Of a DNA stretch of 64,000 nucleotides, positions 22,271 to 61,127 are shown piece after piece. Positions within the stretch are counted from its first letter, which is position 1; each line of letters starts with the position of its first letter. Source of the DNA: a virus (Duplodnaviria > Caudoviricetes); IMG/VR virus record IMGVR_UViG_3300029976_000159, positions 53,976-117,975 of that record, one strand, 5' to 3'. Below the pieces are notes generated by a model, which searched no databases, had not been told where the DNA came from, and saw only the letters and a program-made list of their open reading frames with translations. The position numbers and the translations under genes were made by a program.

Positions 22271-23472
22271 CGTATTAATCCAGTATTTCTACTGGTACTG
22301 ACTATTTCTTCTATCATTTTATTGATAGTCTACCGTTTCCACCTATGTACTAATAATAGATGTACTCCCCGACAAAGGGGATAGTCGATACAGGTTTAGA
22401 GGACTTCAATCCATTGGGCTACTTCTTGTGTATCTGGTACTTTACCGGCAATTTTATCCATATTTAAATGCCTTGTTAAAGTAGTTGCTCCACAATTTGC
22501 CCATTTAGCAGCAACACTAATTGAATTAAAAATTTGTCCAGTATTTATATTTTGTACTTTTCGACCTTTATATTTTACTTCTTTAACTGCAACTGGATTA
22601 GAAATATATTTTTGAATTACACCATTATCTCTATTATATTTTTTAGCAATAGCATTAATCGTCATACCATTGTTATAATCTATAACATATTGATTAATTT
22701 CTTCTTGCAAAATAGCTCCGTCTAATGAAGATAATCCAACTTGATCTTCAGAATGTTCAACATTTTGTTTATGCCATTTTTATTTTCTGGGGTATAAACA
22801 TCAGAATGAACGGTTATCCAATTTTCATTGTTCCAAACTTTTTTAAATCCTCGTTCAGTTATTCCAGTATCTTTAAAAATTTCATATACCTTAGAGCGTC
22901 CTACGTGCATGCTATATAATTCACGAATCATCCAAACATCTTCCTCGGTTAAAATCGCTTGTGGATGATTTTCTCCTCTTAAGGCTTGACCACCAGGAGT
23001 TCTATTATATCCATTTTTATAACTGTCATAATAACTAATCCAATAGATTTCTTGTTCATTCTAATTGTCCTATTGGACATTCCTCAATAATTTCAAAATT
23101 AAAATTATCAATACCATATTTTGCTATCGCAATATCTATTCCAGTTCCTCTTTCTGGTCGATATATTGCATCATATCTATGTTGCATTTCTCTTTTTCAA
23201 TATTATTACTTTGTCCAACATAGATTTTCCCATTTAATTTGTTAGTATATTTATAAATACCAATTGACATATTTACCTCTTTTCCCACGAGATTATCGTG
23301 CTTTTATTTAAAATTTGTAAGTTTCATAATAATATAAATTTTATTCACCGAACTTTTTTCCTTAGTTCGCCCAAAAATTTTTAAATAAAAGTTTAGACTA
23401 CCTCGTTAGCTTTGCTACAGCAAAACCCCCAACAGTTATTGGGAAAAGTAGATAAGGGCTAGACTATCTCTT
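22271..23472 (-). ncRNA. Group I intron in gyrB (1202 nt) carrying a homing endonuclease remnant
   Basis: 5' splice site after U with P1 AAGGGU/GCCCUU; P10 GUCUA/UAGGC; P7 GACUA/UAGUC with S element AAGAAAUAGUC; terminal G. Confidence 0.92.
22396..23270 (-). pseudogene. GIY-YIG homing endonuclease, frameshifted three times
   Basis: MSIGIYKYTN...YVGQS, then KYGIDNFNFEIIEEC, EIYWISYYDS..GYN..GG and NUMOD-like tails fall in different frames. Confidence 0.8.
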
Positions 23473-31966: not shown

Positions 31967-33571
31967 TTAAATTACTTCTCCGTGCCACGAATTAATATGT
32001 CCAATTCGCTTATAATAAAGCCCCGACTTTACCGAATTATAAATTCCTAATGCTCTTTGAGTATTTGGCGGTAAATCAAAAGTTGCAAAATGATTATATT
32101 TTCCTGTTGTACCAAAATTACCACAATCTGCTACAACAGCATCTACGGTTCGATTGTGGTATTTTAACCTAACTAAATCCCCATAGTGCCAAACGGAATT
32201 TAGTTGCCCCTTGGGAATAGCTACATGACAACCGGGAATATTTAAATAATGAATACTGTTCCAACCAGTTACATTACCTTTATCATCAGCTGAAGTATTA
32301 CCATATACTGTACAACCGGTATTAATATATCCAGTATCATCGTCATCTTCGGGAGAGGAAAAACCTCCCAAGCCTGAGCCACTTCCTCCAGAGGCTGAAC
32401 CCACATCCCCGTTGTATCGCCAACCACCATCATAAATATAAAAGTTTAAACTGGAACTGGGTCCGCCCTTGTTTAAACCGAGTTCTCCGCCTCCAGAATA
32501 CGCAGCATTACCATTCTCATCTACAATCTGTACGTGGTGGGCTATACAGACTTGAATATCACCAGGCAACCATGGTCCATCGCCATCAAACCAAGTGAAG
32601 CCTAGGTTAGGTGGGTCTGACCAGTCTGAACCCATGCTAAATGAGGAGTACGTTCCCCCACAAGCAGTGTTCGCTCCTTTTCCACAAGCTATGCTATACA
32701 AGGTTATTGCTGCGCTAACGCATCCAGAGCAATCTAATCTAGCATAGACTTCTCCTCCGCCAGCACGCATTGTAGTGTAGAGTTGAGAGCCTGGATGTTC
32801 ATAATATATCCAGCCATTGGGTGAAGGGGCATCAGCTTTAAGATTTCTCCACATTTCATCAACTATCTCTAGCCATTTTCCACCTTCATAAATATTACAA
32901 ATATCACACTGATATGGATGATACATTAGTTTTCTTGCTTTTTCATAAAGCCCGTTTTCATTATATAAATCAGCTTTGATCAAGCTTTTGTCTGTCTGAT
33001 CCGATTGCCCCGAAATAACTAATACGGTCTTTTGACCGGGCCACCCTGCAACGGGACCGGCTTCCGTAGCATTATTACTTATTGTATTTCCATTCTCGTC
33101 TTTTAATGCTTCTCCGTTAGGGTCTCTGCTTATTGGGTCATAGAACTTTATTAATGGTTCTAGTAAGTTATTATAGTGTTTTGCGTAAATAACATCGTTA
33201 CTCGCAGCCCTAGCTTCTTCCAGTGAAGTAGAAGTAGTTGGTGAGGTTGGGGTATTATCTATTGTAATTTTCCCACCAGAGTTTTGATCCCAATCAGAAA
33301 AGATATTGTTGTCTTGCGGGTTATATTTTCCTTGTGAATAAGTGTTTTTAATAAACTCAATTAAGTCATTTTGTGATTTAGCCGATAAAGTTGAGGTAGT
33401 TTGTATAGTAGACTCTTTAGAAACTTGTGATTGAGTATAGGACTTAATATTTTTCCAATTTAACCAATCACCCTTTTCCTCGGTATTGCCATCCGGACCG
33501 TGAATAGCGAGCTAATGACCTTGCATGCAGAAACTTTGGCAGCCCGCGCACTTATTATTTTCTTCAGCCAT
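31967..33571 (-). CDS. Multidomain cell-wall hydrolase-like protein: Cys-motif N-terminus, NlpC/P60-like domain, double-psi beta-barrel (534 aa, TAG at codon 20)
   Basis: Frame open for 196 codons upstream of 32983 with one TAG (33512); CAGCQSFC, CDIC, LDCSGCVS...HHVQI, VVADCG...FDL. Confidence 0.7.
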
Positions 33572-34295
33572 TGTTCTCTCCTCCCACTATATATTGATTA
33601 TGCAAATTATCATAAACACTACCATCAGCCATTGTAGTATATAATTTGTGCGCCTCTCCGCATTCGTCTATATAAGTATTCTCATCCATTATTACCCTAA
33701 TATCATTCTCTCTCTTTTCTTCCTCTTGGGTCAAACCGCTACTAGCAATATAGTTTTCAATGTTAGCACTGTAAGTTGGAGTACTACCTTGACAACCGTT
33801 TTTCCAAAAGGTAATTAACTTTTCAAGGGTAGTTAAATTATTATATTTTTCTTCTCCATCAGTTGGCTGATTAGAAATGAAATATTTTAAAACCGGCAAA
33901 TCATCAATGGAGATATTATTAATGTAATTTGTAAACTCAGACGAAAAATCAGTAGAAGCTTGAAATTGGGTAATGTAATTATCTATTTCAGCATTTAAGT
34001 CTTCTATCAGCACTGTCCATTCTTTAGTTTTGCAATATAAATACAAAAAGACTGGTAAAAAAGAGCATTTATTATTATCCATGATATAATTTATACTATT
34101 AGTTAATGTTTCTAATGTGTATTGTAAATCAGGAATAATTGTATTTTGAAAAAGTAAGTAATTACTTACATAAATACGATAATTTAAAAAATTGCTAACT
34201 CTATTTGTATAAATATTTTTAACATCTATTAATTCTAAATTACTGAAATTCCAGTCGGGATCAGCATACTCCGTCCCCTAGATAATATAGCTCAA
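33564..34295 (-). CDS. Hypothetical protein in the radical SAM operon (TAG at codon 6)
   Basis: AAAGGA RBS, TTG at 34295, TAG at 34278, then in frame with ORF 33564-34082. Confidence 0.6.
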
Positions 34296-35469
34296 TGTTC
34301 ATCATCCTTTCCAAATATTGATATAATGCAACGCTTTTCGTTGATTTTAGTATCCCTAACGCAAGGTTATACAAAGTTTCATACCAAAAGCACATAGTGT
34401 TTGATTGTACAAAAAAATTGTTAATTGCGGCTGAAGGACATCTAACTTCTAAACATTTACTTTTATAATTACACTTTGCGCAACGCTCAGGATACTCGCA
34501 AGTAATTTTACTTAAAGTACGATATTCTTCTAGAAGTGCTTTGTGTTTATTTTGGTCGATACCATTTTTTAAATCACCTAACAAAAATTTGTTATTTTGT
34601 CCTATCTGTTCTTGACAACCATATATTAATCCTAAGGGACTAATAGCTATAGAGGTTGTACCAAGTCCGCATCTATTTATATCTCTTGTTATAAGAGTAT
34701 TATCCTCGTAAGTTCCTAAGGCTTGTATAAAAGCTCTATCTATGATTGAGCTTCTAATTGGTACAACACCAAGCAATAGACTTCCAATAAAATAAGTAAA
34801 AATTTTTTGTAATTCCTGTTCTAATGTTACTAACCCCTCTTTAGAAAAATTATGTCTTGTATCAGGAATACAAAAAAAATTATTAAAGCCCATTTTTTCT
34901 GCGTACAACACATTATCAAATAAATATTGCGCAGTTGGCTCGTATATAGTCATGCGGAAGGTCGTACTGGGAAAATTTTCCAACAGGCAAAAAATTTGCG
35001 ATTCAACTATATCAAAGCTTTCTTGCGTGTTCAAGGCGGGTCGATTGAAGTTCTATGTATAACGGTCTCCGTCCATAGATAACAAGGGCGTTATGTGGTG
35101 CTCGCGCATAAATTCAATTCGCTCTTGGTTTAGTAAAGTACCATTTGTAGTTATCCCCATTTCAATCTTATTGGGATATTTTTCTTCAATGTATTTAATT
35201 AAAGGTATAATAATATCATCCCAGCATAACATAGGTTCTCCGCCAAAAAAATTCAAAGAGGGAGAGATAATTTTTCCTTCTATTTCTTCTTTTCTTTCGG
35301 TATTGTTTATTAGAAAATCTACAGATTGTTTTGCTATATCTAAAGTCATGTAATGTGTATTTTTATTTATTACACAATATTTACAGCGTAAATTACAATC
35401 ATCTGTTACGCATAAAACCATATTAGTTGGTAAGCCGTATTCTTCTTTGTATTGTTTTATAGTCAGCAT
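34261..35469 (-). CDS. Radical SAM/SPASM-domain enzyme (402 aa, one in-frame TAG)
   Basis: CNLRCKYC, FFGGEP, TTNG, SMDG; TAG at 35053 joins two ORFs in frame; SPASM cysteines CGLG..GC..CAKC..C...CP..C. Confidence 0.9.
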
Positions 35470-35484
35470 AGTTATTTACTCCGT

Positions 35485-35826
35485 TTATACTATATTTTCT
35501 TTGTTTGCTTTATACATTGCTAGCATATCTTGAGCCTTTTTTAAAGCGTGTTCTTTATCTTTAGCCATAACCCAAATACAATCTTCATTTAATATCAAGT
35601 CGTAATCGACATATTCCTGAAAATACACGGAATTATCGTTTGGATCGTATTCAAAACCATACACGGTATCTTCGTTATTTTTACCGTCCTCGTATATTTC
35701 TATATTAGCTCGGCTATATTTTCCATCATATATATCTCGTAATTTTAGAGCTTCTTCATAGTTTGTAGTTACTGCGCAAATATGATAATCAGAAAAAATT
35801 CCTTTGGTTATTATATAAATTCTCAT
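35485..35826 (-). CDS. Hypothetical protein
   Basis: ORF from MRIYIIT with RBS and own promoter. Confidence 0.55.
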   Translation of the reverse strand: MRIYIITKGIFSDYHICAVTTNYEEALKLRDIYDGKYSRANIEIYEDGKNNEDTVYGFEYDPNDNSVYFQEYVDYDLILNEDCIWVMAKDKEHALKKAQDMLAMYKANKENIV

Positions 35827-35940
35827 TTTAATATTCTCCTTTAATACTTCGCAAATGTCTATAAACTTTAAAATTAAAACATTTTTATTATTCTTTTTTA
35901 ATTTTATCATATCATAAAAAATTTATAAAGTCAAAAAAAA

Positions 35941-35971
35941 GAAAGAGGTTAGTTAAAAACTAACCTCTTTC
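35941..35971 (-). terminator. Rho-independent terminator
   Basis: GAAAGAGGTTAGTT/AACTAACCTCTTTC stem followed by a U-run on the minus strand. Confidence 0.75.
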
Positions 35972-36907
35972 TTATCCCAACAGATGTAATCTATCTAAAA
36001 CCACAGATAACTGCGCTCGAGTGACTGGATCGTCTGGTTTAAATGTTCCGTCTGAAAATCCGGTCATAACTTCTTTTTCGGCTGCCTTTTGAATAGAAGG
36101 TTCAGCCCAATGTCCTTGTGTGTCTGTAAACTGAATCATTTTTAAAATAACCTCCATTATTTCATCAACTATGCACCATGCTTCTGTTATTGGATAAGCA
36201 AATGGAATATAACAAAAGCCGTTATTTCCATATTGTTTTCCCCAGGAATTAAGAACTATCCAATAATCATCGTCTGTCCAACCAACTATTGTCATCATGT
36301 GACCGCCATAATTAGTTAAGTCTTTTACTGGATAAATTATGTATCCTTTAGCGTCAGGAGTATATAAAGTACTAAAGATAGGAAAAGATGCTGTAACACC
36401 GCCAAGAGTGTAGATACCTCTTTTAATTTCTTCCGCTCCAGAAGCAAAGTAATAGGAGGAAACACGATAAGGATGTGCTTCTTCATCGTATTTACTTTTA
36501 TTCGTTTCGTACTTAGCGCGAGCGGTCGTAACATCATAGTAACCGGGAAACGTGTCATAATAGCACGTGCCATTCTCTTTGAGTTGCGCAAGAGCTTGAC
36601 GAGGTATCATACCTTCGCCCGAATAATCAGAGCTTTTTCTGTTACCGTAAAGATAACTCGGTGAAAAGATTCGTCTATTTTCACTTTGCTCGTATTCTGT
36701 TAGCCAGCGCAAATAAGAAAGTGAACACGCTACGCATTCCTAACTTGTCCCCTAGTCAAAAATTGGAATATCTTTGACTAGGGGGTTAATATAGCTAGAT
36801 GGAAGAGGCTACTAAGCTGCTCCCGCAATCAAATTTTTAAGTTTGTAATCTCTTTCATCTTTTGGTGATATTAAAGCTCCTGACTTATATTTATTAAAAT
36901 TAATCAT
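35972..36907 (-). CDS. Papain-like C1A cysteine peptidase with C-terminal SLH domain (311 aa, 4 in-frame TAG)
   Basis: PKDERDY...IFD*GTS*ECVA (DQG..C), GGHMM.IVGW, LNSWG, SLH motif F.PDDPVTRAQ. Confidence 0.88.
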
Positions 36908-36922
36908 TTTATTAATCCATCC

Positions 36923-37336
36923 TTAAAACTTTTGTATTAAAATTAAATAGTATTGCTGTTGTATTCCACTATTTGTTACACTCATTGGTAATCCTAAATA
37001 CGTAGATGCCGCTGGAAGATTAGTAATTAGAGTACCATCTAAATTATAAAAATCGTTAATACCAAAAATATTTATTGTCGCTCCATTATTTATTGAATAT
37101 GGCGTAGAAAAAATAATAGCTGGGGTTATTTCGTAATCATAATCAAATCCCGAATTTAATTCAAGATTGGAAGTTAAAGTACCCAAATTTTGAATTGGAA
37201 AACCAATTTGAGTAATTCCGGAAGAATTAGTGTTACAAAACAAATTTCCATATTGTGGGTCTATAGCTAGTTCTCCTTTAGTTAAAGCTCCCTTTTTAGG
37301 TACTCCATTAACTCTTTTAATTAATATTGTTGCCAT
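36923..37336 (-). CDS. Tail-fibre-associated protein
   Basis: ILIKR...LTKGELAI N-terminal motif common in phage fibre proteins. Confidence 0.5.
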   Translation of the reverse strand: MATILIKRVNGVPKKGALTKGELAIDPQYGNLFCNTNSSGITQIGFPIQNLGTLTSNLELNSGFDYDYEITPAIIFSTPYSINNGATINIFGINDFYNLDGTLITNLPAASTYLGLPMSVTNSGIQQQYYLILIQKF

Positions 37337-37341
37337 TTACA

Positions 37342-37524
37342 TTACCTCCCTGTAATACTTCCACCATCAATTATTTGTTCACTTAAATCTATATTTTGTC
37401 CTGTAACAGCTTTTATTGTTGCTTCCATTAAAATTTCAGCATCAGTAGATGCTGTAGTTACTTTATCTACTTTTGTTGACAATTTACTGGTAATACCAGT
37501 TTGATTTAATAAAATTCCATTCAT
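37342..37524 (-). CDS. Hypothetical virion protein
   Basis: ORF with RBS, ends IIDGG. Confidence 0.5.
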   Translation of the reverse strand: MNGILLNQTGITSKLSTKVDKVTTASTDAEILMEATIKAVTGQNIDLSEQIIDGGSITGR

Positions 37525-37572
37525 ATAGTTTTCTCCTTCCCGTTATTGCATTTATTTAATTAATTCCTCTTT

Positions 37573-40398
37573 TTAACTAGTTAAATTGCTTTCGGGTGTC
37601 ACAAATTCAATCCAACCGCATATATAAGTCGCTCCCGCGTTTTGCACATAGTCAGCCGTAATTTGCGAAGTGTCCACGTCGCACCCGGTGTTAGAAACCG
37701 GTGTAAGATTTATATCGTCTATCACACATGGAGTGTCTCCCGATATAATCGTTGCCCCCCACTTCAGATAAAGACAATATTCCGAGGTATTAGAGATTGT
37801 TTTGCAATAATTGCATAAATCAATCTCGTCACTGCTCGCTAGTGAATTTTTGTCATCATCTGTAAGCGTATATTTAAATGCCACCCTCCAAATCGGTGTG
37901 CCGTCCGTCCATGAACCGATTTTTTGCGGTGTTGTGGAATATGTTTTCAAGCTGTCGGTCAACTGAGGAAGACCTATCGAGCCGGCGTGAACGGTTCTTG
38001 CAACGTTGGCAGTGTTACTATAGTCGGCAGTGTTACTGCTCATTGCAATACTGTTTGCCAAAACAAAGGTGTCGTTTGTGTAAATTAGATGAAAACACCC
38101 GTAAGAAATACTGTTGTAGCTTTCAAACCCGTCCACACCGTCAAATGTAACCGTTCTGGCACCGAGATCGTTAATATTAAGAGTTATAGCTGTTTCTGCT
38201 TTTAAGTGATTCCCGTAATCGAAATAAATATAGAAGTCCATTCCTTCTTTTAAAGCCGTAACTCCGTCAATCGTAACCTCTTTTGCGTCGTTCTCCGTAG
38301 AGGATGTACAAATCCCGTAAAAACTTGTTTTATTGCCGTTTATCGCCGCTGTTATAACCTTATTTTGTACTGGATTTTCTGAGTTCTCTGACAACACCGT
38401 GTCAATTCCTGTCTTGGTTACACAGTTCGCTTTTGTTTTTATTGTAGTCGTAGTGTCTGTATTATAACCTACCTCTACATAATCTACAAAAGTATAAACC
38501 CCCGTAGGTGTAGAATGATTGCCATAGGAACCATCCGTAGAACTGCTCCATTGAATATCGTAATCCTCTGGATACATCCCATTAAAATAAAGCCATATAC
38601 GAGCGCCAAAATCGCTTTCTACTTCGTATGTATCTGTAGTAACTGTAAATTCTTCACCTGTTGCCCACGTTCCTTTTATTATATATTTAGAAAAACCATA
38701 AGTTGATTCATCACCTGCCGCATTTGTGCTTGTGTTAGTACAAGTCACTGCGAGAGTGCAACTGTTGTTTGCTATTTGCAATTTTAACTTGCTTATTTCT
38801 TGAGATATAGCTTTATTTCGCACGGGATTTTCAGACGTGCTATCTAATGTATTGTCTATTTTTATTATCTTAGCTCCACTCGACCAATCAGAAAAACTGG
38901 AGGCATCACTCGCTTTCTTTCGTTGATACGTGAAACCGTTTGAATCTATTTTTGTTTGAATAACTGTATAATTTGATGCGTCTGCATCCTGTTCTTTTTG
39001 AACAAATACAGGAATATAGCCCTAATCTTGCTAGAGCATATAAAAACCGCATTCTTTCTACTTTAATTCACTATCAGTGATATAAATACTATCTTTTATT
39101 TCACCAATAACCTCTATTTGCCCGTCTATGGTTTCGGTCGGTTGCGTAATCATTTTACATAAATAATTATATCCATAAATTAATTTGCTGTTTAAAACAT
39201 AACCCGTAGTAACATCTGTCGCTATAGTATTTTTAATTAAATATTCATCTATGTCACTAAGATCGTTTTTTAAAATAAAATATGTATCATTAGCACTCGG
39301 AATATAGTTGTTTGTATTATTAAGCTTACTTAGACTATATTCGGCAATCTTTATATTATCTGAGCCTATTGGATAATCAATCCCATCAACGCAAGCATAT
39401 AAATCTAAGCCACCCGTATTATTTTTAATACCGTAAAATATATTATCAAAACTATCAGGGGTGTCTATTATACTTATATTATCTATATAAGCTATTACAC
39501 CACCAGCCCAAGTGTATATTTCGATTCCAGTTAAATCAGCAGGATTAACATCATCTAAAAAAGCAACTGTATCCTTCTACAAAACTTCAGTTCGATTGAA
39601 ATAATCATAAATTGCATAAGTAACTTGTTTAGTTTTGAAATTACATTCTGTTTCAATATGTTTCCAACCTTCACTTTCTACCTATGTAGCATTTTGCTAA
39701 ACAGCTAAATAGCCACTACTATCAATACAACCAATAGTAAATACAATTCCTGTTGTATCATAAGTAGTGCCCGTTGATTCACCTGGTCTTTTGTTTAAAT
39801 TTGCAATACTGAATTGAGTCCTAGAACCAAAATAAATATCAAAATTTGTTTTTAATATTTGAGTATCGCTAGCTAAATTTAAACAAGAAGAATAAGCTTG
39901 TCTATAAGTATTCGAGTTACCGCTTTGGTTAATTTTTTGACAATAACTATCTATAATATTGTTATATTCTACCGTGCAAGACGTTCTATATCCAGTAACA
40001 AAAAGTGATTGTTGGTCGGTAAAATCATAAACTGCACTAGGAAGTTTATCTACAATTTTTAAAGATAATACATTATTCTAATTTAATATCTCCCAGCTAG
40101 ACCAAGAGCTAGAAGAATAAGTTCTTATATAGGCGGCATTTGAATTTGTGGCATAACAAATCTAAACTACTTCATTTTCTATTGTTCCCACGATTAAACA
40201 ACCCTCTGTTATTTTCCCCGGATAATTAGTACAATCACTATAACCGTACATTCCAATGGTTTTAACATTATCAAGGTCTTTTCCAGAAAGTATTGCAGTA
40301 GTTACCAATGAACCGTCTGACAGGATTTGATTAACTATTGTATCAATTGTCGTTTGAGATAATGTAATTGTCTGCGGCGGGTTTACTATAACTGCCAA
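37573..40398 (-). CDS. Tail fibre/receptor-binding-like protein (941 aa, 8 in-frame TAG)
   Basis: Manual translation joins ORFs 40162-40398 and 37573-38823 with no TAA/TGA; WSSW knob motif and repeated S-ENPV-NK motifs. Confidence 0.8.
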
Positions 40399-40499
40399 TT
40401 TTATTTTCCTCCTTAATAATTTAATGTTCTATATAATATCGCTAAGAAATTTTCAGTCCAAGAGGCTGAAGTAGCAGTAATGCTTTACCACATAAACTA

Positions 40500-40730
40500 T
40501 TAAGATGTGCGCCCGCCCTCAGAATCCACTTTTCGACCTAGCATAATATAGGGATCTCCAGATGATAAATCTTTTATTTTAGTGCGGCATTTGATTTTTA
40601 ACTTGTTTCTCGCATTGGCAATCATTGCATCATGCGAATATTCGCTAATTTTAATTGCGGCAATAAAACTTGAAACCCCTAAAGCTTTAGCGACATTTTC
40701 TTTTGTTTTATTATATATTTCTTTCTTCAT
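40500..40730 (-). CDS. Hypothetical basic protein
   Basis: ORF with GGAG RBS. Confidence 0.5.
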   Translation of the reverse strand: MKKEIYNKTKENVAKALGVSSFIAAIKISEYSHDAMIANARNKLKIKCRTKIKDLSSGDPYIMLGRKVDSEGGRTS

Positions 40731-40795
40731 ATAAACATCAAACTCCTGTTATATCACAAAAGTAGATTTGCGTATTGTGCAATACGTGGCATTTG

Positions 40796-41818
40796 TTAAT
40801 ATTTTAATGCTTTATAGAGAATAGCTAACAAATTACCCTTGGCAATTTCACCTTCAAAATCTGTCCATGCGTCAGGTGTCGTAACAATGCCCTTATCGCA
40901 TAAACTATCCAAATGATTGCGTCCCCAGTGGTCGGTTGTTCTGCCCTGATATTGTGCCAACATTCCGCTTGTAATTTTGTCGATTAAAGCGAGAACCAAG
41001 GCTTTTGAAATCGAGCTGTCAAGCGTGGGTATCCACTGCTCTTTGTCTGTGATTACTCCTTTGCCGCAAAGACTTATTACATGAGGCTGCGCCCAATGTA
41101 TCGCGGAATTAGCTTCATCACTTGCCCAAGTTCCACCCGTAGATTTGTCTATAAGAGCAATCGCTTGCGCTTTAGTAACTGGCGCATTGTAATCGCCCCA
41201 AATTTCTGTATTAGCAATTAATCCTTTATTTATAAAATATTCTAAATAAGTATCGTAGATATTTATGGATTTTTCTTCTTCCTAAGCAATACTCCACTTA
41301 GGTCTTCCGTAACCCAATATGCGGCTGTAGCCGAGTGTGTATGATTTCTGCGCAACCGCCCCACCGTTTGCAACTACTCCAGCTGTAGACGATGTATTTC
41401 CCTCAACTGTATAAACTTTGCCGTTCGCAACTTTTATAACTATTCCCGTATGTGTTGATTCCGCGCCTTTATAAAAGAAAATTACATCTCCAGGTTCGGG
41501 TGAAGTATGCCAAGCGCCATTATTTTTAAAGTGCTGTACTCCATAAGGGCAATACGCATAATGCCCGTAAAGCATTTTTTCCGCTTTGTCTGCACCAAAC
41601 ACATATGCAAAACAGCACGACACAAACATTGCGCACCAAGGTTGTCCCTGATAAACATTCACGCTCTCTCCGAAAAAACTACAATAATCTCTTGCAAATC
41701 TTGTATAATTCGCACTTCCAGCGTTAGCTGTAAAATCATCAAGATAGCTATTGGAACGTTTTTCCAAATAGCCCGTCCATGATTTTGCATTGTTTAACAA
41801 ATCATTGATAACACTCAT
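40796..41818 (-). CDS. Endolysin: CHAP domain plus three SLH-like cell-wall-binding repeats (340 aa, TAG in the linker)
   Basis: PWCAMFVS, HTGIV, TVEGNT, GYGRP; TAG at 41282 then in-frame repeats (HW...L..KG(V/I)). Confidence 0.88.
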
Positions 41819-41879
41819 TTATATCCTCCTTTCTTATTGTTGTAGTACTAAGATTGTATCTAATTAATTAAATATCGTT

Positions 41880-42185
41880 CTATTTTGTGTATACTGTTGT
41901 TGCGCCTTTAATGCCCGTTGCTCTTATACTTGAAAGACCAGTCTTATTATGTATATCATTTTCAGGTACTTCGAGATTTGAATTAGACAAAGTAAATTTA
42001 CTTAATTCTGAATTTGTAAAATCCTTTTTTGAATTACGTTTCTCTGCTCTTATTCGTTTTCCAGCTCTTATAATAGCTTCTTCGCTTACACAAATCATTT
42101 TCTTAATTATATCCTTTCTAAAAATCGCCTTTGGTAGCTTTATTATATCAAAAAAATTTTTACTTGTCAAGTTAGCCCTCTTCAT
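41880..42185 (-). CDS. Hypothetical basic protein
   Basis: ORF overlapping the end of the holin-like gene; ends in TAG, so likely a few codons longer. Confidence 0.45.
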   Translation of the reverse strand: MKRANLTSKNFFDIIKLPKAIFRKDIIKKMICVSEEAIIRAGKRIRAEKRNSKKDFTNSELSKFTLSNSNLEVPENDIHNKTGLSSIRATGIKGATTVYTK

Positions 42186-42444
42186 ATCTATCTTCTACCG
42201 GCAATGGTTCACGGCTTATTTTTGTTACATTTTCTGCTTTAGCTTTATTACTATAAAAAGCAATTGCGATTCCGACCGGTGCGCCGATGTAGCTGAACAG
42301 TCCGCATAAAGCGGTAGGTATATATGTAATACTTGCCTCTTGGAGCAATTGAATGATTACATATATACCAAAAAACAAGCCTATGAAGTAAGTTAGCATA
42401 ACAAGACTGAGTATTATTTTTGAAAACTCAATTTTGTGTCGCAC
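42172..42444 (-). CDS. Holin-like two-TM protein
   Basis: EFSK...two hydrophobic helices...KAKAEN; upstream of the endolysin. Confidence 0.65.
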   Translation of the reverse strand: MRHKIEFSKIILSLVMLTYFIGLFFGIYVIIQLLQEASITYIPTALCGLFSYIGAPVGIAIAFYSNKAKAENVTKISREPLPVEDRYEEG

Positions 42445-42674
42445 GTTACTTAACTCCTTTATTTATAACTTTTTTAATAGTGTGACCTTTTGGATTTTAT
42501 TTTTTCACATTTTTAGACTATCCTCATATGTTGGTATACCTAATTCCCATAAGGTATAATCGCTTATATATTTAGCGTTACATTTATTATCATCCATCAC
42601 TTCTGCTGTATCGCGCGTAAGTGTATGTATCAATCCCATATTTGATTTAATATTATCGTCTATTCCTATGCCTA

Positions 42675-42812
42675 TCATTCGCTTTTCGTCCCCGTAATCT
42701 CCTTTGCTTCTTCTTCAGTAATCCATCCCTTAGAAACCGCGTTATTTACCATTTCCGCGTTCCAAAAGCCTTTATCATAGTACCGCTTTACTTTTTCGTA
42801 TTTCGCACTCAT
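42675..42812 (-). CDS. xkdX: XkdX family protein
   Basis: MSAKYEKVKRYYDKGFW...AVSKGWITEEEAKEITG. Confidence 0.75.
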   Translation of the reverse strand: MSAKYEKVKRYYDKGFWNAEMVNNAVSKGWITEEEAKEITGTKSE

Positions 42813-42967
42813 TCCGCCGCCTCCTCTTCTGCGTTATCCTCCGTGGGAATCTCAACATCCGCCATCATTGCCACATAGTCAAGCGTGGCGGATATTTTCT
42901 CTGTTTCCGCCACGTTATTGTCTACTGCGGTTTGTACAATTCCGTTTATGCCCTTTAATCGTTTCAT
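42809..42967 (-). CDS. Small tail-associated protein
   Basis: MKRLKG...LDYVAMMADVEI; overlaps the RT stop and the xkdX start. Confidence 0.6.
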   Translation of the reverse strand: MKRLKGINGIVQTAVDNNVAETEKISATLDYVAMMADVEIPTEDNAEEEAAE

Positions 42968-44010
42968 TCCGTTGCCTCCGTCCATAAATTTTTATAAAAC
43001 CTGTCCATATGCCTTACAACCTTCCAACTGTTGCCCTTTGCGGCATGATTTTTCCATGCCCTGTACATTTCATCCGCTTTATCCTTCGTCATTTCATCGC
43101 ATTTAACCTTTCTCACGATGCGCCGAAGCTTTCGTTTTTCATCTTGAACCTTTTTCTTGTCGATAAGCATAAGAACCTTGCCTGTGTCCGTAACTCTAAA
43201 TTTAAAGCCGAGAAACTTTATGCTCTGTTTTATCGGGTATATCCTCGTTTTTCTCTCGTGTAATTTAAATCCTCTCTCGCTCAGCCATTGTTCAATTATA
43301 TTACGGCAATACTTCAAGTAATCTTTATCCTCATGAAATAATACAAAATCATCCATGTATCTGACATAGTATTTAATATGTAATTTCTCTTTTATAATAT
43401 GGTCAAGCTTATCGGGGACGGAAATCCCCACAATCTGTACCATCTGGCTTCCCGGATTAAATCCCGTGTCTCCGGCATATTGTCCGTCCAAAACCTCCGC
43501 CGCGCGTTCATACACGCACGGTCTTAACTTTTCCCGAAACGTATCTTTTGCCGTATCATGCGGCATATTAGGATAATAACCTTTTATATCAAATTGTGCT
43601 ACGTAAAATTTTAATCCATGCTTAAAATACATCTTGCGCAAAAATTCCTTAAGCCTGTTTCGCGCGAGGTCTGTGCCTTTCCCTTTTTGGCAAGCCATAT
43701 TATCATAAATAAACGATTTGCACATAGTTGGATAGATTTCGTTATCATTTAAACTCCTCTGATATACCCTATCCCTGAATGCAATGCTCAAACATTCTCG
43801 CTTTTTCGGATGCGTAATCGTAAATTTGTGCGGCTCTCTTGCCTTATATGTGCCGTCCTTAAGCTGCTTTTCAAGTTTTAATGTTTCCTCAACGGCATTT
43901 AAATGATAATGTGCCGCTGATTGTTTCCATAAAACCCCGCATTTGCATTTATCTTCGGATTCATACAAAGCTTCAAATCCTATAATATTTTCTGTATCAT
44001 TATTATTCAA
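42964..44010 (-). CDS. DGR reverse transcriptase
   Basis: KGKGTD, FDIKGYY, GSQMVQ, YVRYMDDF, FLGF. Confidence 0.95.
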   Translation of the reverse strand: MNNNDTENIIGFEALYESEDKCKCGVLWKQSAAHYHLNAVEETLKLEKQLKDGTYKAREPHKFTITHPKKRECLSIAFRDRVYQRSLNDNEIYPTMCKSFIYDNMACQKGKGTDLARNRLKEFLRKMYFKHGLKFYVAQFDIKGYYPNMPHDTAKDTFREKLRPCVYERAAEVLDGQYAGDTGFNPGSQMVQIVGISVPDKLDHIIKEKLHIKYYVRYMDDFVLFHEDKDYLKYCRNIIEQWLSERGFKLHERKTRIYPIKQSIKFLGFKFRVTDTGKVLMLIDKKKVQDEKRKLRRIVRKVKCDEMTKDKADEMYRAWKNHAAKGNSWKVVRHMDRFYKNLWTEATE

Positions 44011-44189
44011 TAGTTATCTCCTTATGTAAAGTATCTCAGGCGCGTATAGCGAAATACCGTCATTGCGCACGGTTTCCGCGTCACCATCGTATATTTAGCC
44101 GTTATTGCCAACGGTCAGGGTCGCAGACTCCTTGCTTATATTTTCTGGTGCGCCGCCTCTATAAGACGGTTTCATGCCCCGTTAAATTT

Positions 44190-44314
44190 GCAATCCGGGC
44201 GTGCGCGCCACGCATTCGTCGCGTTGTTGTTGTTGATGTTGCCGGTGGCGTTGATGTTCCACGTATTGTACGCGTTGCCGCGATTAGCGGAGCGCAAGCG
44301 CACATTGCACGATG
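44190..44314 (-). repeat. DGR template repeat (TR)
   Basis: 125-nt AAC-rich copy of VR, between avd and RT. Confidence 0.95.
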
Positions 44315-44338
44315 TTAGTCTGTAACCCAAATATTATG

Positions 44339-44752
44339 TTATGTTATTTTACTGTATCTCTTTCGGTCAGCCTCATGCCACGCTTTTAAGGCATCCCGAG
44401 TTTTTATAATTTTTTCACCCCAGAATTTCAGTCGTTTGGTTTTGAAATGAAAAACCTTTTGCGCAAGCTGAATCTGCGGAAGCATTCTGTTGCATTTCCT
44501 TATTGCCCTTCTTTGAAGCTCACGGCGCGTTATCCAGTCGCCCGCTGTCGTGACGTATACGTTGTTCGCCTCGAACGCGTCATAGAATACACTTTGCGCC
44601 GCTTCGATAATGGGTGCAGTCACGCAGTCAAAATATTCATCCTTGAATACTTTTTTATTGCGCGTGATTTTTAATGTGTATACTGCTAATTCCTGAGCCG
44701 TAAGCAAAAAGTGCAATTTCGGCTTTGCCCGCTCTCCTTCTGGTACCGCCAT
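44339..44752 (-). CDS. avd: DGR accessory variability determinant (four-helix bundle)
   Basis: Basic, helical, 137 aa, EAN...R...Q and W...D motifs; lies between VR and TR. Confidence 0.8.
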   Translation of the reverse strand: MAVPEGERAKPKLHFLLTAQELAVYTLKITRNKKVFKDEYFDCVTAPIIEAAQSVFYDAFEANNVYVTTAGDWITRRELQRRAIRKCNRMLPQIQLAQKVFHFKTKRLKFWGEKIIKTRDALKAWHEADRKRYSKIT

Positions 44753-44785
44753 ATAATATATACCTCACTTTCGTTTGTAATTCCC

Positions 44786-44813
44786 ATCCCCCGCATCCGT
44801 GGGTGCGGGGGAT
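44786..44813 (-). promoter_or_regulatory. GC-rich hairpin/cruciform downstream of VR (DGR target recognition)
   Basis: ATCCCCCGCATCC-GT-GGGTGCGGGGGAT, 17 nt past the target stop codon. Confidence 0.75.
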
Positions 44814-44830
44814 TAATAGATGTAAAAGAT

Positions 44831-47185
44831 TCACACAAAGCAAGCCGGGCGTGCGCGCCACGCATACGTCGCGCTGGAGCTGTAGATGCCGCCGGTGGCG
44901 ACGATGCCCCACGTAATGCACGCGTAGCCGCGATAAGCGGAGCGCAAGCGCACATAGCACGATGATGTCTTTGCGTTCAGAGCGTAGCTCTTAAGTTCTG
45001 CGTATGTTTGCCACTGCGCATATTTGCCTGTTCTGCCGTTTGCGGCGGCAAGCTGCTTATAGAAATCCCATGCTTCGCCCTCTATACCCGAAATCTGCGG
45101 GGTTATGTACATCTGTTCGAGCGAGGGCAAAAATACCTTGTCGTACATTACGTCTGTCACACCGCTGTCGGTAACGGTATTTGTCGAATGTTGTACCTTT
45201 ATCGGTTTCATTGCCGCAATGAAATCCTCGGAATATCCTGCCAAAAATCCCGCGTATGTGTTAAGCTGCGATGGCGCTCTGTCCCATTTGTTCTGCTTTG
45301 TCCACCATTCGCCGACTTCTGCGGAGCTGTTGAGCCACTGACGCAACGCGCTGTACTTGTATCTGTTGTAGCCCAAGAACATACGCTGATAATGATTGAC
45401 ATCGCCCGTGCCGTCCGTTGCGCCGAGGTATGTGCCTGTTGCCGTGTCCTCTGTGACCTCGGTTAATGCAACGGTTTCAGTTGCCGTAAATGTGGTAGGG
45501 GACGCGAACACCTGTATATTTGTTCCCGCAAAATCCGAGGTATCCTGATTGCCGACAAGATAAAGCTGTTCACCCTCGGTTAAGTCGTTTTCAAGTGTAA
45601 AGCTGTAATATTTGCCGTTGCACGCGTAAGCCTTCCATGAGCTTGCTGTGCATACAAGCTTGAAATAATACGTACCCGCGCTCATTCCGCCCTCAGGCAC
45701 ATCGTACATTGCCTCACGCGCGTCAAACGGCATATCAAACGGCGTACAATATGCCCATTGTAAGAACATTCCTTTTGTATCCGCCGTAACTACCGCGCCG
45801 TCGGTATCCGTGCCTGTCTGCATGGTTTCGCTGTTTGAAAAATGCACCACATTCATAGGCACGTCCGTGTATGCGGTAGTTCCGGACGAACGCACATCCG
45901 ACCAATCCTCGGCGAGTTGGTCGCCAATGGAGAATGCTTTTGAGGCTTCTCCCGCGTCTGTAAGTTTTGAAATTGCTGCCCAAGAATTAAGCACACCGAT
46001 TGATGCTGCCAAAGCATTTACGCTAGTTGTTAAATCATTAATCTTTGCAGTTATTACTTGATTTTCTACTGGATTAGATGATTCATCCAAAAGCTCGGAA
46101 TCTACGATAGTTTTATTTGCGCCTTCCTCTATGCCATCAAGCTTTATCTTTTCCGCTGTGGTGTAACTTGCTGTCGTAGCGTCAAGGACGCTCTTGTTGC
46201 TGTGCGTGTGCGCCGATGCCGCAACCTCGTTTATCGCTCCCACAAGGGTTGCTGTTTCCGTTGTCGTAAGACTTGACATTGTTCCAATATCATGCGCTGC
46301 TTCACCCGCGTATGTTACGGCATTGTTCCATGAATTAACATCATCCATGGTAATACCTTTCGATTCGTCTCCGTAGATTACTGTGAACTCTGTCGCTTCA
46401 ATACTTCCGGGGAAAGACATTCCGGTTGCTGTCCCGCCGATTGCGTCCAGAACCGTCTTGTTGTCGTGCGTGTGCGCCTTATCGTATGCGATTTTGCCGT
46501 AATCGCCCCTGAATGCTGTTGAGGATGTTTCACCTAAAGCAAGCGATTCCGAAATTTCTACAAGTGTAGAACCCGACCATCTATATGTTTTGTTGGTATC
46601 AAGGTCAACATATATCTTTCCTGTTTCACCATCTATTTCTGTTGTATGTGCGCTGTCACTATATATTTTATCATTTGAAATATATCCTTCTACAACATCA
46701 TCCACGTAAGATGGTAATTGTGACGAGGGGACTTTGCCAGCAGCATCAAGTTCTGCTATACCGTTAGCTGTACCTTTATCACTGGCGGGAACAGCTTCAA
46801 CGTCTAAATAAGTCAATGTTATATCTTGGTCAAGAGTATAATCGTTTATTTTGCGACTTTTTTCAACAAGCGTTTCTAAGTCCATAGCTTGCTTAGTTGC
46901 AAGCGTTTCAATTTCAGATGCGTTATCATTAACTTGTTCCTGCAAATTACTTATATTATTGTCAACTGCTTCTGTAACTCCAACCCATTTGGAATTTTGT
47001 AATACGTATAATAACTGTGTGTCTTTAGCATAAACTATCATACCCTCATACGCACCATTTTCATCTATAAGCGCAGTTAAATCATCAGTTGTATCAACTA
47101 CTGCTCTTACATCCAACGGGGTTTTAGCCTAAAGTTTAAATCCAGAAGCAACGTTAATTCCTGTCATATTGTCAAATATTGCCAT
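44831..47185 (-). CDS. DGR target: tail fibre/receptor-binding protein with C-terminal CLec-like variable domain (784 aa, TAG at codon 19)
   Basis: MAIFDNMTGINVASGFKL*AKTPLDVR; GKVPSSQLPSYVDDV and HTH.NK fibre motifs; SALRQWLN, DKVFLPS, LRSA...RPA C-terminus containing VR. Confidence 0.88.
44840..44964 (-). repeat. DGR variable repeat (VR)
   Basis: Aligns to TR without gaps; 18 mismatches, all at TR adenines. Confidence 0.95.
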
Positions 47186-47206
47186 AATTTTCACCATCCT
47201 TCCATA

Positions 47207-48034
47207 TCAATGAGCGAATTTCATGTTAAACGCCGTAACGGTTGTCGCGTCCGAAACGTACACATAGTAATTCTGCGCCGTGCCGTCAAGTCCGGTAATT
47301 GAAACGGTAGACTGTGTAAACGTATCTGTGACATTGAATCCGTTCGGGTCTGTAATGGTCTTGATAACTCCGTTCGAAGCGGGTGTCGCAAATACCATCT
47401 TTTGGTTTGAAGCCGTGTAAGAGATGGTCTTTGTTCCCTTCGATTCAATCTTCTTGGTCAAAGCTTTAACCGCCGCCGCGTCTGCCGTGGCGTCCGCCGC
47501 AATGACACCGTAATAATACGGATAAACAAACGTAAATGTTCCGGTGTTCGCGCTTGTCACCTTGCCGTCCGAATCTGTAACCTTTGCCGTGAAGTTTTGG
47601 TTTGCCGAAACGGAGGTGGAAACGGTAAAAGTAAACGTTGCCGAGCCGTTTGAGTTAAGCGTTGACAAATCCGTGCCGGACTTAGATCCCAAAGAGGTAG
47701 AGCCGCTGAAAATCTCCACCTTTGTAATGGACGCGCTTTTCTTTGTGACGGAAACGGAAATCGAAGTAACCGTTTGAGCGTTGCCCTTTTCGTAAGTGCC
47801 GCCGTTTGCGGGTGAAACAACCTTTGCCGTCACCACAGGCGCAACCCACGGATACAGAATTTTTGTCAGCATTTCCGTAACGGGAACATCGGTAAAGGTA
47901 GCCCCTGCCGCAATACCGCCGTGCGCGCTGACAACGGGTGTCGAGTTTGTGTACTACGTAGCATTCTCTATTTCTGTTTTTATTTTTTCTATCGCTCGTT
48001 TTAAATTTCCAAGAGTCAAAAGTTTATATGCCAA
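47207..48034 (-). CDS. Ig-like-domain virion protein (275 aa, TAG at codon 27)
   Basis: TTG at 48034 with RBS, TAG at 47954, in frame with ORF 47207-47872; Thr/Ser-rich beta-strand pattern. Confidence 0.7.
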
Positions 48035-48052
48035 TTTATATCATCTCCTTTA

Positions 48053-48727
48053 TTAACCAAATACTTCTGTAAGCATTTCATCAACCTCAGTTTCTGTAGC
48101 TACAGAATCTTCACTTATTTTCGCGCTCATCTAATGATTACTATCAAGCGATAATAAAACATCAGCATCTTCTTCATTATACACGGTAACGTATTCAATT
48201 AATGAACCTACATTGATATACACCGGAGTTGCATTTGTATCATTTAGTACTAAACGTAAATAAGTACCAGCCGCAAGTCCTTCAACTTCACCAGCTTCTA
48301 ATTCAACAACCGAACCCTCCTATAACATCATGTCTTTTGGAATATTTATAATTCCAATGGTATTATTACCCTGTTTAAGCGTATAATCTAACGAACCATC
48401 CTCATGTTCTAATTCTATGGCGCTATTGGCTTCAAGACTACTTAAATCTACTGTGATACTTGGAACATCTGTTGAACTAAACGTTAATACCAAGTTATTA
48501 TTTTCATCTATATAACCACTTGCTATATGAACATTGGAACCTCCTACTGAAATCATTTGCCAAGACTTATTACCATCTAACATATATGTTTCTGAAGTAG
48601 AAATAACAAATGCGGTGCTACCTGTTTCGCAATTGGTAGGTAAAGTATCTACATCCGCTCTACGATCTACAACATATTGTTTAACGTTATATAAAGTCTA
48701 ACTGGCAAAATTAGTTAAATTCATCAT
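48053..48727 (-). CDS. Virion protein (224 aa, 3 in-frame TAG)
   Basis: ATG at 48727 with RBS; TAG at codon 10, at 48320 and near 48131; IPKDMML*EGSVV motif. Confidence 0.7.
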
Positions 48728-48815
48728 TTTGTCAAAACTCCTTTTCATCAAAATAATTCTCTACTAATTTTAAAATCTTGTTTATGTAAACTATCAAATA
48801 TTGCCCAAAAATTAG

Positions 48816-48871
48816 TTAAACCCATTTTTGTTTTGGGGTTGCGGTCTTGCCGAGCGCAAACGCTCGGGGCA
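48816..48871. repeat. GC-rich structured dispersed repeat, copy 2
   Basis: Aligns with 8391-8447; internal hairpin CCGAGCG/CGCTCGG. Confidence 0.6.
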
Positions 48872-48885
48872 GAAAATAACAAAAA

Positions 48886-48915
48886 TAGGGAGAACAAATA
48901 GTTTTGTTCTCCCTA
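48886..48915 (-). terminator. Rho-independent terminator after the suppressor tRNA
   Basis: TAGGGAGAACAAA/TTTGTTCTCCCTA stem followed by a U-run. Confidence 0.75.
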
Positions 48916-48927
48916 GAAATCTCGCAA

Positions 48928-48999
48928 CGGGGGACCAGAGGTTCGAACTCTGACGATGAGGGTTAGAGCCTCATGTGCTACCAATTACACCAATCCCCT
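48928..48999 (-). tRNA. Amber suppressor tRNA (anticodon CUA), Gln-like
   Basis: AGGGGATTGGTGTAATTGGTAGCACA-TGAGG-CT-CTA-AC-CCTCA-TCGTCAGAGTTCGAACCTCTGGTCCCCCG; G2-C71, G3-C70, G73, unpaired 1-72. Confidence 0.93.
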
Positions 49000-49131
49000 G
49001 CAGGAACAAGGCGCGATGGCTCTGACACTAAACGGTTTGTAGCGTACCGGTTGGTACCCGTTAAAAGACTTCTGTTAAATCTTCTTGCATATAACTTAAA
49101 AATATTTTGCTGATTTCGCGCCTTTATAAAA

Positions 49132-49347
49132 TTATATCACATATTTATTAATACTTGAATAAATATCATCTTCACACTCACACCAAATTTCTGACCATTC
49201 AAGCGAATATAACATACCCATAATAGATCTACCGCTCACGCAATGACCGCTTCCATCTTTAATCATAATGGGCTTTTGGATTGAATTTGCAATATCTACA
49301 AAGTTCTGAATATCACTTATTGTATCGAGTCTTATTTTTGCTTTCAT
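49132..49347 (-). CDS. HPr/Crh-like protein
   Basis: VSGRSIMGML matches the Ser46 motif of PTS HPr; His15 region absent. Confidence 0.7.
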   Translation of the reverse strand: MKAKIRLDTISDIQNFVDIANSIQKPIMIKDGSGHCVSGRSIMGMLYSLEWSEIWCECEDDIYSSINKYVI

Positions 49348-49371
49348 ATTTTTTATCCTTTCTATACTAAT

Positions 49372-49400
49372 ATTATAACAAAAAAATTTTTTAAAGTCAA
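49372..49400 (-). promoter_or_regulatory. Consensus promoter driving the HPr-like gene and the suppressor tRNA
   Basis: TTGACT-17-TATAAT with TG extension. Confidence 0.8.
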
Positions 49401-49563
49401 GGAAGTTTTCGGAGTTTTCTTAAAATTTTTCTCATAACCCCACAATTAACAATCGTATTCCCTCTTGCTTCTAATTTTTTTAAACGATTTTCTAGTTTCA
49501 ATTTTTCCATCAAAATTCTCCTTTTAATACCTTTAGCAGAAATTACGAGATTTAAACTCGTAT

Positions 49564-49640
49564 TGGTCGGGGTGACTGGATTTAAACCAGCGGCATTCCG
49601 GTCCCAAACCGGATGCTCTATCCAACTGAGCTACACCCCG
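49564..49640 (-). tRNA. tRNA-Pro(UGG), atypical T-loop
   Basis: CGGGGTG...TCCGG-TT-TGG-GA-CCGGA...CACCCCGACCA; T-loop TTTAAAT. Confidence 0.85.
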
Positions 49641-49694
49641 AAATTCACTAGACACACACAAACCATAAATTACTATTGCTGTAAGTGTCTAAAA

Positions 49695-49767
49695 CTGGGA
49701 TAGTAGGACTCGAACCTACGAGTGTCGGAATCAAAATCCGATGCCTTACCGACTTGGCTATATCCCA
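49695..49767 (-). tRNA. tRNA-Gln(UUG)
   Basis: TGGGATATAGCCAAG...TCGGA-TT-TTG-AT-TCCGA...GGTTCGAGTCC...TATCCCAG. Confidence 0.93.
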
Positions 49768-55133: not shown

Positions 55134-55140
55134 TTTATAC

Positions 55141-61123: not shown

Positions 61124-61127
61124 ATTT

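Follow-up and report, generated by a model that had tools for sequence, protein, structure and literature searches.

Gut phages in which TAG is read as glutamine (Gln) have been described by Borges et al. (bioRxiv 10.1101/2021.08.26.457843), together with their suppressor tRNAs, recoded structural, lysis and homing-endonuclease genes, and replication genes that keep to the standard code; recoding was proposed to time late and lytic functions, and a code-change module was located upstream of the lysis cassette. Code 15 has been confirmed in crAss-like phages by metaproteomics (PMC9523058), and the clade described by Babkin et al. 2023 (PMC10607447), which comprises phAss-1, EF1, PMBT10 and metagenomic relatives, includes some recoded members that carry tRNA-Sup-CTA and no aminoacyl-tRNA synthetase (aaRS). 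In addition, minimal hepatitis delta virus-like (theta) ribozymes adjoin phage suppressor tRNAs (Kienbeck et al., bioRxiv 10.1101/2023.06.13.544163). Here we analyze a tRNA gene with a CUA anticodon, and the in-frame TAG codons of the phage that carries it, in the virus record IMGVR_UViG_3300029976_000159; the window, that is the whole stretch studied, comprises 64,000 nucleotides (bases 53976-117975 of the 117,975-bp record, i.e. its right 64 kb). Our results indicate that the phage almost certainly uses genetic code 15, with TAG assigned to Gln. Both such recoding and the hypothesis that it acts as an early/late gate are already published (Borges 2021; Babkin 2023), and the present phage is a well-supported further case.

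On sequence grounds the phage appears to be siphovirus-like, to belong to the SPbeta / Enterococcus EF1 / phAss-1 group and to infect Bacillota; its relatives include SPbeta-like Bacillus phages (DnaE 37% identity), Enterococcus phages EF1/H1 and the human-gut phage phAss-1, and its portal protein has 41.5% identity to that of phAss-1 and 29% to those of EF1-like phages. The genome (34% GC) is laid out as two convergent arms. The plus-strand (virion) arm, genome positions 183-48689, lies wholly outside the window and encodes a sigma-like regulator, terminase, portal, structural proteins, proteins of 2974 and 2640 residues, and tail proteins. The minus-strand arm fills the window and encodes DnaE, DnaB, helicases, RecJ, ligase, GyrA/GyrB, PhoH, RNA ligase, NrdD, RuvC and a nicotinamide adenine dinucleotide (NAD) operon.

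Like the phages of Borges et al., this phage carries in-frame TAG in genes for structural proteins, lysis and homing endonucleases, keeps its replication genes readable under the standard code, and has a phage-borne suppressor tRNA and a code-change element upstream of a lysis-related block, the phages of that study mostly having no aaRS of their own; the TAGs in its homing endonucleases parallel the recoded intron endonuclease of that study. It differs in being a DnaE-type SPbeta/EF1-like siphovirus of Bacillota rather than a member of the crAss, Lak or gem-named clades, and in that no module of release factor 2 (RF2) and aaRS was found, the tRNA instead being its own promoter-terminator unit; the Jade-type code-change module (RF2/RF1 and aaRS by a suppressor tRNA) is not matched here. 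The likeness to phAss-1 (PMC10607447) extends to TAG in the large terminase subunit (TerL), portal and tape-measure genes, a tRNA-Sup(CUA), no aaRS found, a predicted Clostridia host and, in one phAss-1 suppressor, an unpaired 1:72 (U.C). However, the two belong to different genera (~40% protein identity), four tRNAs including one suppressor are present here versus 36 including three suppressors in phAss-1, and a diversity-generating retroelement (DGR) and the NAD operon are found here. The case adds a DnaE-type Bacillota phage to the recoded phages.

Open reading frames (ORFs) of at least 150 residues give a genome coverage of 0.516 under table 11, 0.844 when TAG is read as Gln and 0.523 when TGA is read as tryptophan (Trp), and portal, TerL, NrdD and RuvC are intact only if TAG is read through. 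TerL has 10 in-frame TAGs; when compared with 120 full-length homologues (~70% identity), 4/10 stand at invariant or nearly invariant Gln, the other six columns being polar (R, K, T/D/Q, D, N and D). A Codetta-like test, in which all proteins were searched by tblastn against 47 related IMG/VR loci, gave 49 TAG columns, at which Gln makes up 38% of aligned residues versus 40.5% at columns where the genome itself has CAA/CAG; Gln has a log-likelihood of -103.8 and the next residue one of -145.5, a lead of ~42 units. In a solved NrdD (PDB 9d3x), the residue opposite TAG209 of the phage NrdD is the Gln in a conserved motif, SQIIA...SSQYGG, and the TAGs of the sigma-like gene fall on Q-conserved columns. 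A hydrolase gene of the window gives a further example.

35972..36907, minus strand: papain-family/SLH cell-wall hydrolase (Pfam), with TAG at codon 52 within 'FD-Q-G-T-S-Q-E-C-V-A-C-S'

We take TAG52 to be the oxyanion-hole Gln, six residues ahead of the catalytic Cys in the D-Q-G...C motif of the papain family. The gain in coverage and the match of TAG columns to Gln in TerL, the 49-column test, NrdD and the papain-family gene bear out the TAG-to-Gln recoding that a preliminary description of the window had claimed, the two comparisons it had put forward (coding density under table 15 versus 11, and alignment of TAG with Gln in homologues) thus both having come out in favor of recoding. The possibility that the broken ORFs stem from pseudogenisation or a faulty assembly was discarded, since the interruptions are by TAG only, the frames run on and homologues span the breaks. 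Table 15 is needed for annotation: table 11 breaks up about one-third of the coding sequence, every virion gene included. All of the called genes (120/120) end in TAA or TGA, by construction of the calling; in standard-code relatives TAG accounts for ~7-14% of stops. Two early-type genes on the minus strand, 8449-9900 (RecJ-like) and 55135-55881, have TAG 4 and 1 codons ahead of their TGA/TAA, a count not above chance; these could be true TAG stops plus a back-up stop for the suppressed state.

The suppressor tRNA and the elements that flank it are as follows.

48928..48999, minus strand: suppressor tRNA, anticodon CUA (Rfam tRNA, 49.1 bits; ARAGORN 48927-49000; no CCA encoded)
48886..48915, minus strand: intrinsic terminator, 13-bp stem and U-tract, starting 13 nt after the tRNA
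49001..49131, minus strand: 130-nt leader from the 71-residue ORF to the tRNA, moderately structured (fold z -2.4; Rfam E-value scan negative)
49131..49159, minus strand: weaker candidate promoter, TTCAAG-17-TGATATAAT, extended -10, recognized directly in the sequence and below the scan threshold
49132..49347, minus strand: 71-residue ORF without TAG, between promoter and tRNA in the same unit; no family match
49372..49400, minus strand: sigma-A-type promoter, TTGACT-17-TGnTATAAT (11/12 plus TG), from a promoter scan, 372 nt upstream of the tRNA
49567-49640, minus strand: tRNA-Pro(UGG), just upstream of the suppressor unit (ARAGORN/Rfam)
49695-49767, minus strand: tRNA-Gln(UUG), just upstream of the suppressor unit (ARAGORN/Rfam)

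ARAGORN finds four tRNA genes in the window, all on the minus strand. A sub-threshold Rfam match to YrlA (Y RNA-like) over the tRNA-Gln/Pro pair (49584-49744) probably reflects tRNA-likeness only. The suppressor folds as a canonical cloverleaf with A1.C72 unpaired, G2-C71, G3-C70, G4-C69, G5-C68, G10, G73, the anticodon loop CUCUAAC, a TTCGAA T-loop, G18G19, an 8-nt D-loop and a 5-bp anticodon stem. In bacteria, the identity elements of tRNA-Gln include U35, G36, A37, U38, G73, G2-C71, G3-C70, G10 and a weak 1-72 pair (PMC9976931). The acceptor elements of this set (G73, G2-C71, G3-C70) and G10 are present, with 1:72 as an unpaired A.C; in the anticodon loop U35 and A37 are kept, G36 is replaced by A, since reading of UAG requires A there, and U38 by C. 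By its anticodon loop the molecule is therefore not a normal tRNA-Gln; it is a Gln-derived suppressor, and the CUA anticodon and Gln-like elements noted in the preliminary description are confirmed by ARAGORN, Rfam and the fold. Like the E. coli amber suppressors that GlnRS (glutaminyl-tRNA synthetase) recognizes, namely supE, a tRNA-Gln with CUA, and su7, a tRNA-Trp with CUA that receives Gln, it places CUA on a Gln-type body that keeps U35, G73, G2-C71, G3-C70 and G10 with a weak 1-72; unlike them, it has a true A.C mismatch rather than U-A, and C38 for U38, and it is no laboratory suppressor but a natural phage gene that serves sense positions by the hundred.

In a BLAST search of 201 Clostridia genomes, the top match to the suppressor was a tRNA(CUA) on a related phage contig, and the next five were all cellular tRNA-Gln(CUG), with which it shares the D-arm GGUGUAAU(U)GGUAGCAC. 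The similarity shows that the suppressor descends from a Clostridial-type tRNA-Gln(CUG) via a G36 to A change. Homologous suppressors occur in phAss-1 and in four other relatives (G006, G007, G213 and G004); an exact-pattern search of viral contigs had given no tRNA match and BLAST in five relatives had likewise been empty, the homologues coming later via Clostridia genomes and metagenome-assembled genomes (MAGs). The gene at 50560-51750 near the tRNA has no close relatives among viral contigs, and synteny around the tRNA is not traceable through it. A weak or unpaired 1:72 is common in the suppressors of this clade: the ten examined include A.C, U.C (twice), U.U (twice), G.U, U-A (twice) and A-U, and never G-C. 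One cellular tRNA-Gln(CUG) likewise has U.U at this position.

The tRNA, to judge from the near-consensus promoter and the terminator that flank it, forms an independent unit under a host-type promoter, and is apparently neither the leader of the downstream operon nor late-transcribed; a relative (G004) is laid out alike, with TTGACA-17-TGTTATAAT, 45 nt, tRNA(CUA), a terminator and the next promoter, and without the ORF. The terminator region (48820-48926) folds with -39.6 kcal/mol (z -5.4). The consensus promoter of the preliminary description is thus real, but it is not directly upstream, being 372 nt away with the 71-residue ORF between; nor does the tRNA lie upstream of the virion module, the main part of which (portal, terminase, giant proteins) belongs to the opposite arm and is not in the window. 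The candidate extended -10 TGATATAAT overlaps the stop codon of the 71-residue ORF. The leader (49001-49131) is closed by a 9-bp long-range helix, and the Rfam E-value scan around the tRNA detected no riboswitch, T-box or ribozyme. Like the tRNAs with theta ribozymes, this is a recoded gut-phage suppressor tRNA whose 3' trailer must go; in contrast to them, a terminator hairpin begins 13 nt after G73 and no CCA is encoded. A scan for ribozyme families (Rfam, E up to 5, 48600-49900) found none by the tRNA, with a chance-level twister elsewhere; the authors' theta motif was not run.

The distribution of TAG differs between the arms, and the following features serve to illustrate it.

909..4736, minus strand: DnaE-type polymerase, 1275 codons without TAG, standing for the TAG-free replication genes
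22662..23288, minus strand: free-standing homing endonuclease in the gyrA/gyrB gap, 6 TAGs, the densest on the minus arm
31967..48727, minus strand: recoded island after the tRNA, with two tail-fibre-like proteins, the DGR target, a CHAP hydrolase, a radical S-adenosylmethionine protein, an NlpC/P60-like gene, a 941-residue protein (8 TAGs) and the papain-SLH hydrolase (4 TAGs)

With start codons picked by Shine-Dalgarno (SD) score, TAG occurs in 30/31 genes of the virion arm (232 TAGs, 32% of Gln-type codons) and in 19/72 genes of the minus arm (46 TAGs, 6.9% of Gln-type codons). On the latter it is found eight times in RuvC, six and three times in two homing endonucleases, once in NrdD, and further in the block that follows the tRNA, where 9/17 genes carry it versus 9/54 elsewhere on this arm (Fisher p=0.008). 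No TAG occurs in DnaE, DnaB, GyrA, GyrB, ligase or the four NAD genes, all of which end in TAA/TGA, as the preliminary description had stated. The second homing endonuclease (16945-17907, minus strand; 3 TAGs) lies amid TAG-free replication genes.

The preliminary description had also counted about 13 genes with TAG, many of them near the start, and had suggested that 5'-clustered TAGs block synthesis of virion and lysis proteins. The genes are there (15-17 minus-strand genes of the window have in-frame TAG), but the early positions survive only in part. The 'codon 30' TAG of PhoH lies within the SD sequence TAGAGGAGG, 5-8 nt before TTG-ATG, and hence upstream of the likely start. So do the TAGs listed for 50560-51786 (codon 10), 59663-61165 (codon 7) and 31967-33685 (codon 6), each of which comes before an ATG with a strong SD. 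Genuine early TAGs are found at about codon 10 (48053-48727), codon 27 (47207-48034), codon 19 (DGR target), codon 34 (52712-53479) and codon 20 (31967-33571); three of these five genes are the first three after the tRNA. Since only five genes keep them once over-long ORFs are set aside, early TAGs exist but are no general feature of the recoding. On the virion arm the positions are uniform along genes (Kolmogorov-Smirnov (KS) p=0.22), with 16.1 TAGs per 1000 codons in the first 30 versus 15.3 in the rest; on the minus arm the skew is modest (mean relative position 0.38, KS p=0.0025, n=46), the median first TAG being at codon 34 versus 86 expected. As a mechanism of blocking, 5' clustering is accordingly weak: the virion arm, with its 232 TAGs, shows none, and a start-codon artefact accounts for some of the signal in the window.

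The reading that we favor overall, and which we consider reasonably probable, is of a code-15 phage with a host-charged suppressor and a translational gate. In outline, the tRNA would be made as its own short unit (host-type promoter, 71-residue ORF, leader, tRNA, terminator) and, the promoter being of host-type consensus, probably from the start of infection. Any delay would then come from accumulation, maturation (3' processing and CCA addition) and competition with release factor 1 (RF1), not from late transcription. Host enzymes would need to trim the 3' end and add CCA before the tRNA could work; host glutaminyl-tRNA synthetase (GlnRS) would charge it through the kept G73, G2-C71, G3-C70, G10, U35 and A37, the unpaired A1.C72 mimicking the weak 1-72 pair that GlnRS must open. 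Full-length products of TAG genes would appear only when the charged suppressor outcompetes RF1, and the result would be a translational delay and a safety catch on late and lytic functions, while the replication, nucleotide and NAD genes, having no TAG, would be translatable in the unmodified cell. The gate is an inference; it agrees with the contrast between the replication genes, which lack TAG, and the virion, lysis and homing-endonuclease genes, which carry it.

Within this reading, charging by host GlnRS is likely. GlnRS unstacks the 1-72 pair in the GlnRS-tRNA complex, and first-pair mutations in other amber suppressors lead to mischarging with Gln. Because a weak or open 1:72 is a Gln-type acceptor feature, the A1.C72 mismatch speaks for GlnRS and not against it; the mismatch to which the preliminary description drew attention is real, but the puzzle of charging that it saw there is smaller than claimed, given the Gln(CUG) origin and the weak 1:72 across the clade. 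GlnRS is found above the cut-off in Lachnospiraceae and Acutalibacteraceae MAGs that contain related phage contigs. The search of the rest of the genome for RF2 and GlnRS envisaged in the preliminary description found neither, and genes for RF1/RF2 and GlnRS/GluRS (the latter being glutamyl-tRNA synthetase; PF00472, PF03462, PF00749) are absent both from the ~70%-complete record and from five relatives, three of them complete. A glnS match, 'G006:C195', was considered as a phage-encoded GlnRS and rejected, its contig having proved to be a different one (65.7 kb) from the related phage contig.

Several observations weigh against the favored reading, and the alternatives draw on them. The record is incomplete, and genes for a code change could sit in its missing part. 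Two complete, heavily TAG-recoded relatives, G003 (142,602 bp, direct terminal repeat; coverage with TAG as Gln rising from 0.44 to 0.77) and G005 (173,969 bp; 0.29 to 0.68), have no tRNA(CUA) detectable by ARAGORN, and the phage suppressor tRNA may therefore not be the sole decoding route. The MAG bins that hold contigs of relatives include Clostridia, Bacilli and Erysipelotrichaceae, and GlnRS is absent from the Bacilli/Erysipelotrichaceae bins; clear mis-bins (Bacteroidales, Treponema) turn up too, which makes host assignment through binning unreliable, and the host class is probably Clostridia. The GlnRS-less bins would suit indirect charging by a non-discriminating GluRS followed by GatCAB in a host such as Bacilli, as would the presence of Bacillus and Enterococcus phages in the wider group. 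We nevertheless regard this route as improbable: the GluRS/GatCAB route needs U1-A72, and amidotransferases and GluRS2-type enzymes rely on that pair (PMC9976931), whereas the suppressor has A1.C72; it also has C34 in place of the modified U34 used by B. subtilis GluRS, and the known Bacillus/Enterococcus relatives are without recoding. The Trp identity set (PMC9976931) fits the suppressor about as well as that of Gln (A1, G2-G5, G73, C34 and A36 match), and the closest of the phAss-1 tRNAs in pairwise score is Trp(CCA), at 50/72; the tRNA could on that basis be a tRNA-Trp derivative (CCA to CUA) charged with Trp or, like E. coli su7, with Gln. This we consider very improbable, because the ancestry is tRNA-Gln(CUG), as seen in the D-arm and anticodon stem and in top cellular matches that are all Gln(CUG) with no Trp, while U35, C72 and G9 (in place of the Trp element A9) are misfits; the alignments also exclude Trp as the meaning of TAG, W being absent from the residues aligned to TAG columns. 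A pyrrolysine tRNA, suggested by the ARAGORN label 'tRNA-Pyl', has a negligible probability: the label mirrors the anticodon alone, having been put on nine/nine other tRNA(CUA) genes of phAss-1 and related contigs, the cloverleaf is canonical in its G18G19, T-loop, D-loop and anticodon stem, and the TAG columns align with Gln. A true tRNA-Pyl, which goes together with pylS, folds atypically, its D-loop being short, its anticodon stem 6 bp long and the G18G19/T-loop consensus missing.

As to the gate, the bimodal pattern of TAG would also arise passively and unselected, which again counts against the favored reading. The recoding would in this case be real and the early/late pattern a by-product: early genes cannot tolerate TAG, and later-translated genes gain it neutrally as CAG-to-TAG changes accumulate under AT pressure, with no timing function selected. 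The even spread of TAG along virion-arm genes is in keeping with such a process, as are the occurrence of TAG at conserved and variable Gln or polar columns alike, TAG counts per orthologue that vary widely among close relatives (0 to 12 in the sigma-like gene), and the low GC content. It accords less well with homing endonucleases that, amid early genes, are the most TAG-dense of their arm, with TAG-bearing lysin and regulator genes behind host-type consensus promoters, or with the report by Borges et al. (bioRxiv 10.1101/2021.08.26.457843) that lysis genes have been convergently over-recoded in other clades. We judge the passive origin possible, if rather unlikely, and for a selected temporal gate we see the arguments as evenly balanced.

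The favored reading has a possible extension to transcription. A gene outside the window, the first large one on the virion arm (genome 2085-3146, also delimited as 2028-3146; 3 TAGs), matches PHROG 5767 'sigma factor' (E 3e-43); the protein has no sequence match in Pfam, NCBIfam or PDB, and Foldseek of its AlphaFold model (predicted local distance difference test 73.6) against PDB was empty. Model residues ~200-299 align weakly (VIA-align, Z 6-7.5) to region 4 of many sigma factors, a predicted likeness that is suggestive only. The gene is preceded by a perfect TTGACA-17-TGnTATAAT promoter, kept in 12/16 relatives; a host-type consensus promoter also precedes the CHAP lysin. Elsewhere on the virion arm strong host-type promoters are rare, and when upstream regions were compared by k-mers, no late-promoter motif emerged apart from the SD sequence. 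In TAG-recoded relatives, TAG stands at Gln-conserved columns of the sigma-like gene, and in three TGA-recoded relatives (L027, L028 and L037; 50-53% identity in this protein and 63-64% in TerL) TGA stands at Trp-conserved columns, their coding density rising when TGA is read as Trp. Standard-code, TAG-recoded and TGA-recoded phages thus occur in one clade at 50-70% protein identity, which makes it good material for studying how recoding starts. The code switch may, as a hypothesis, license a late transcription regulator, in which event late transcription would be licensed only once the suppressor tRNA is functional; both the suppressor unit and the regulator would be transcribed by host RNA polymerase from their near-consensus promoters. 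The combined proposal, that the code switch stands above a transcription switch via the recoded sigma-like regulator and that the unpaired 1:72 of the clade's suppressors offsets the lost G36-GlnRS contact, we regard as doubtful. Neither the 1:72/GlnRS lead nor the recoded-regulator lead alters the published general picture.

With respect to the record itself, IMG/VR classes it as linear and CheckV estimates it as ~70% complete; the contig end falls within a 21-bp tandem repeat (window 63869-64000; 6.3 copies, 99% matches), which is consistent with an assembly break and an incomplete record. The recoded island includes a complete DGR (42964-47197, minus strand), composed as follows.

42964-44010, minus strand: DGR reverse transcriptase
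44190-44314, minus strand: DGR template repeat
44339-44752, minus strand: DGR accessory-like gene, 137 residues
44840-44964, minus strand: DGR variable repeat, at the C terminus of a 784-residue DUF6273 protein

The differences between the template and variable repeats are all at template adenines (18/18), and the GC content of the region is 47% versus 33% elsewhere. Elsewhere on the minus strand, a DUF2828/DUF7788 protein (30244-31770) adjoins the RNA ligase (28191-29486) and tRNA-Leu(UAA) within the region 28191-31886; together, these three may form an RNA-repair module.

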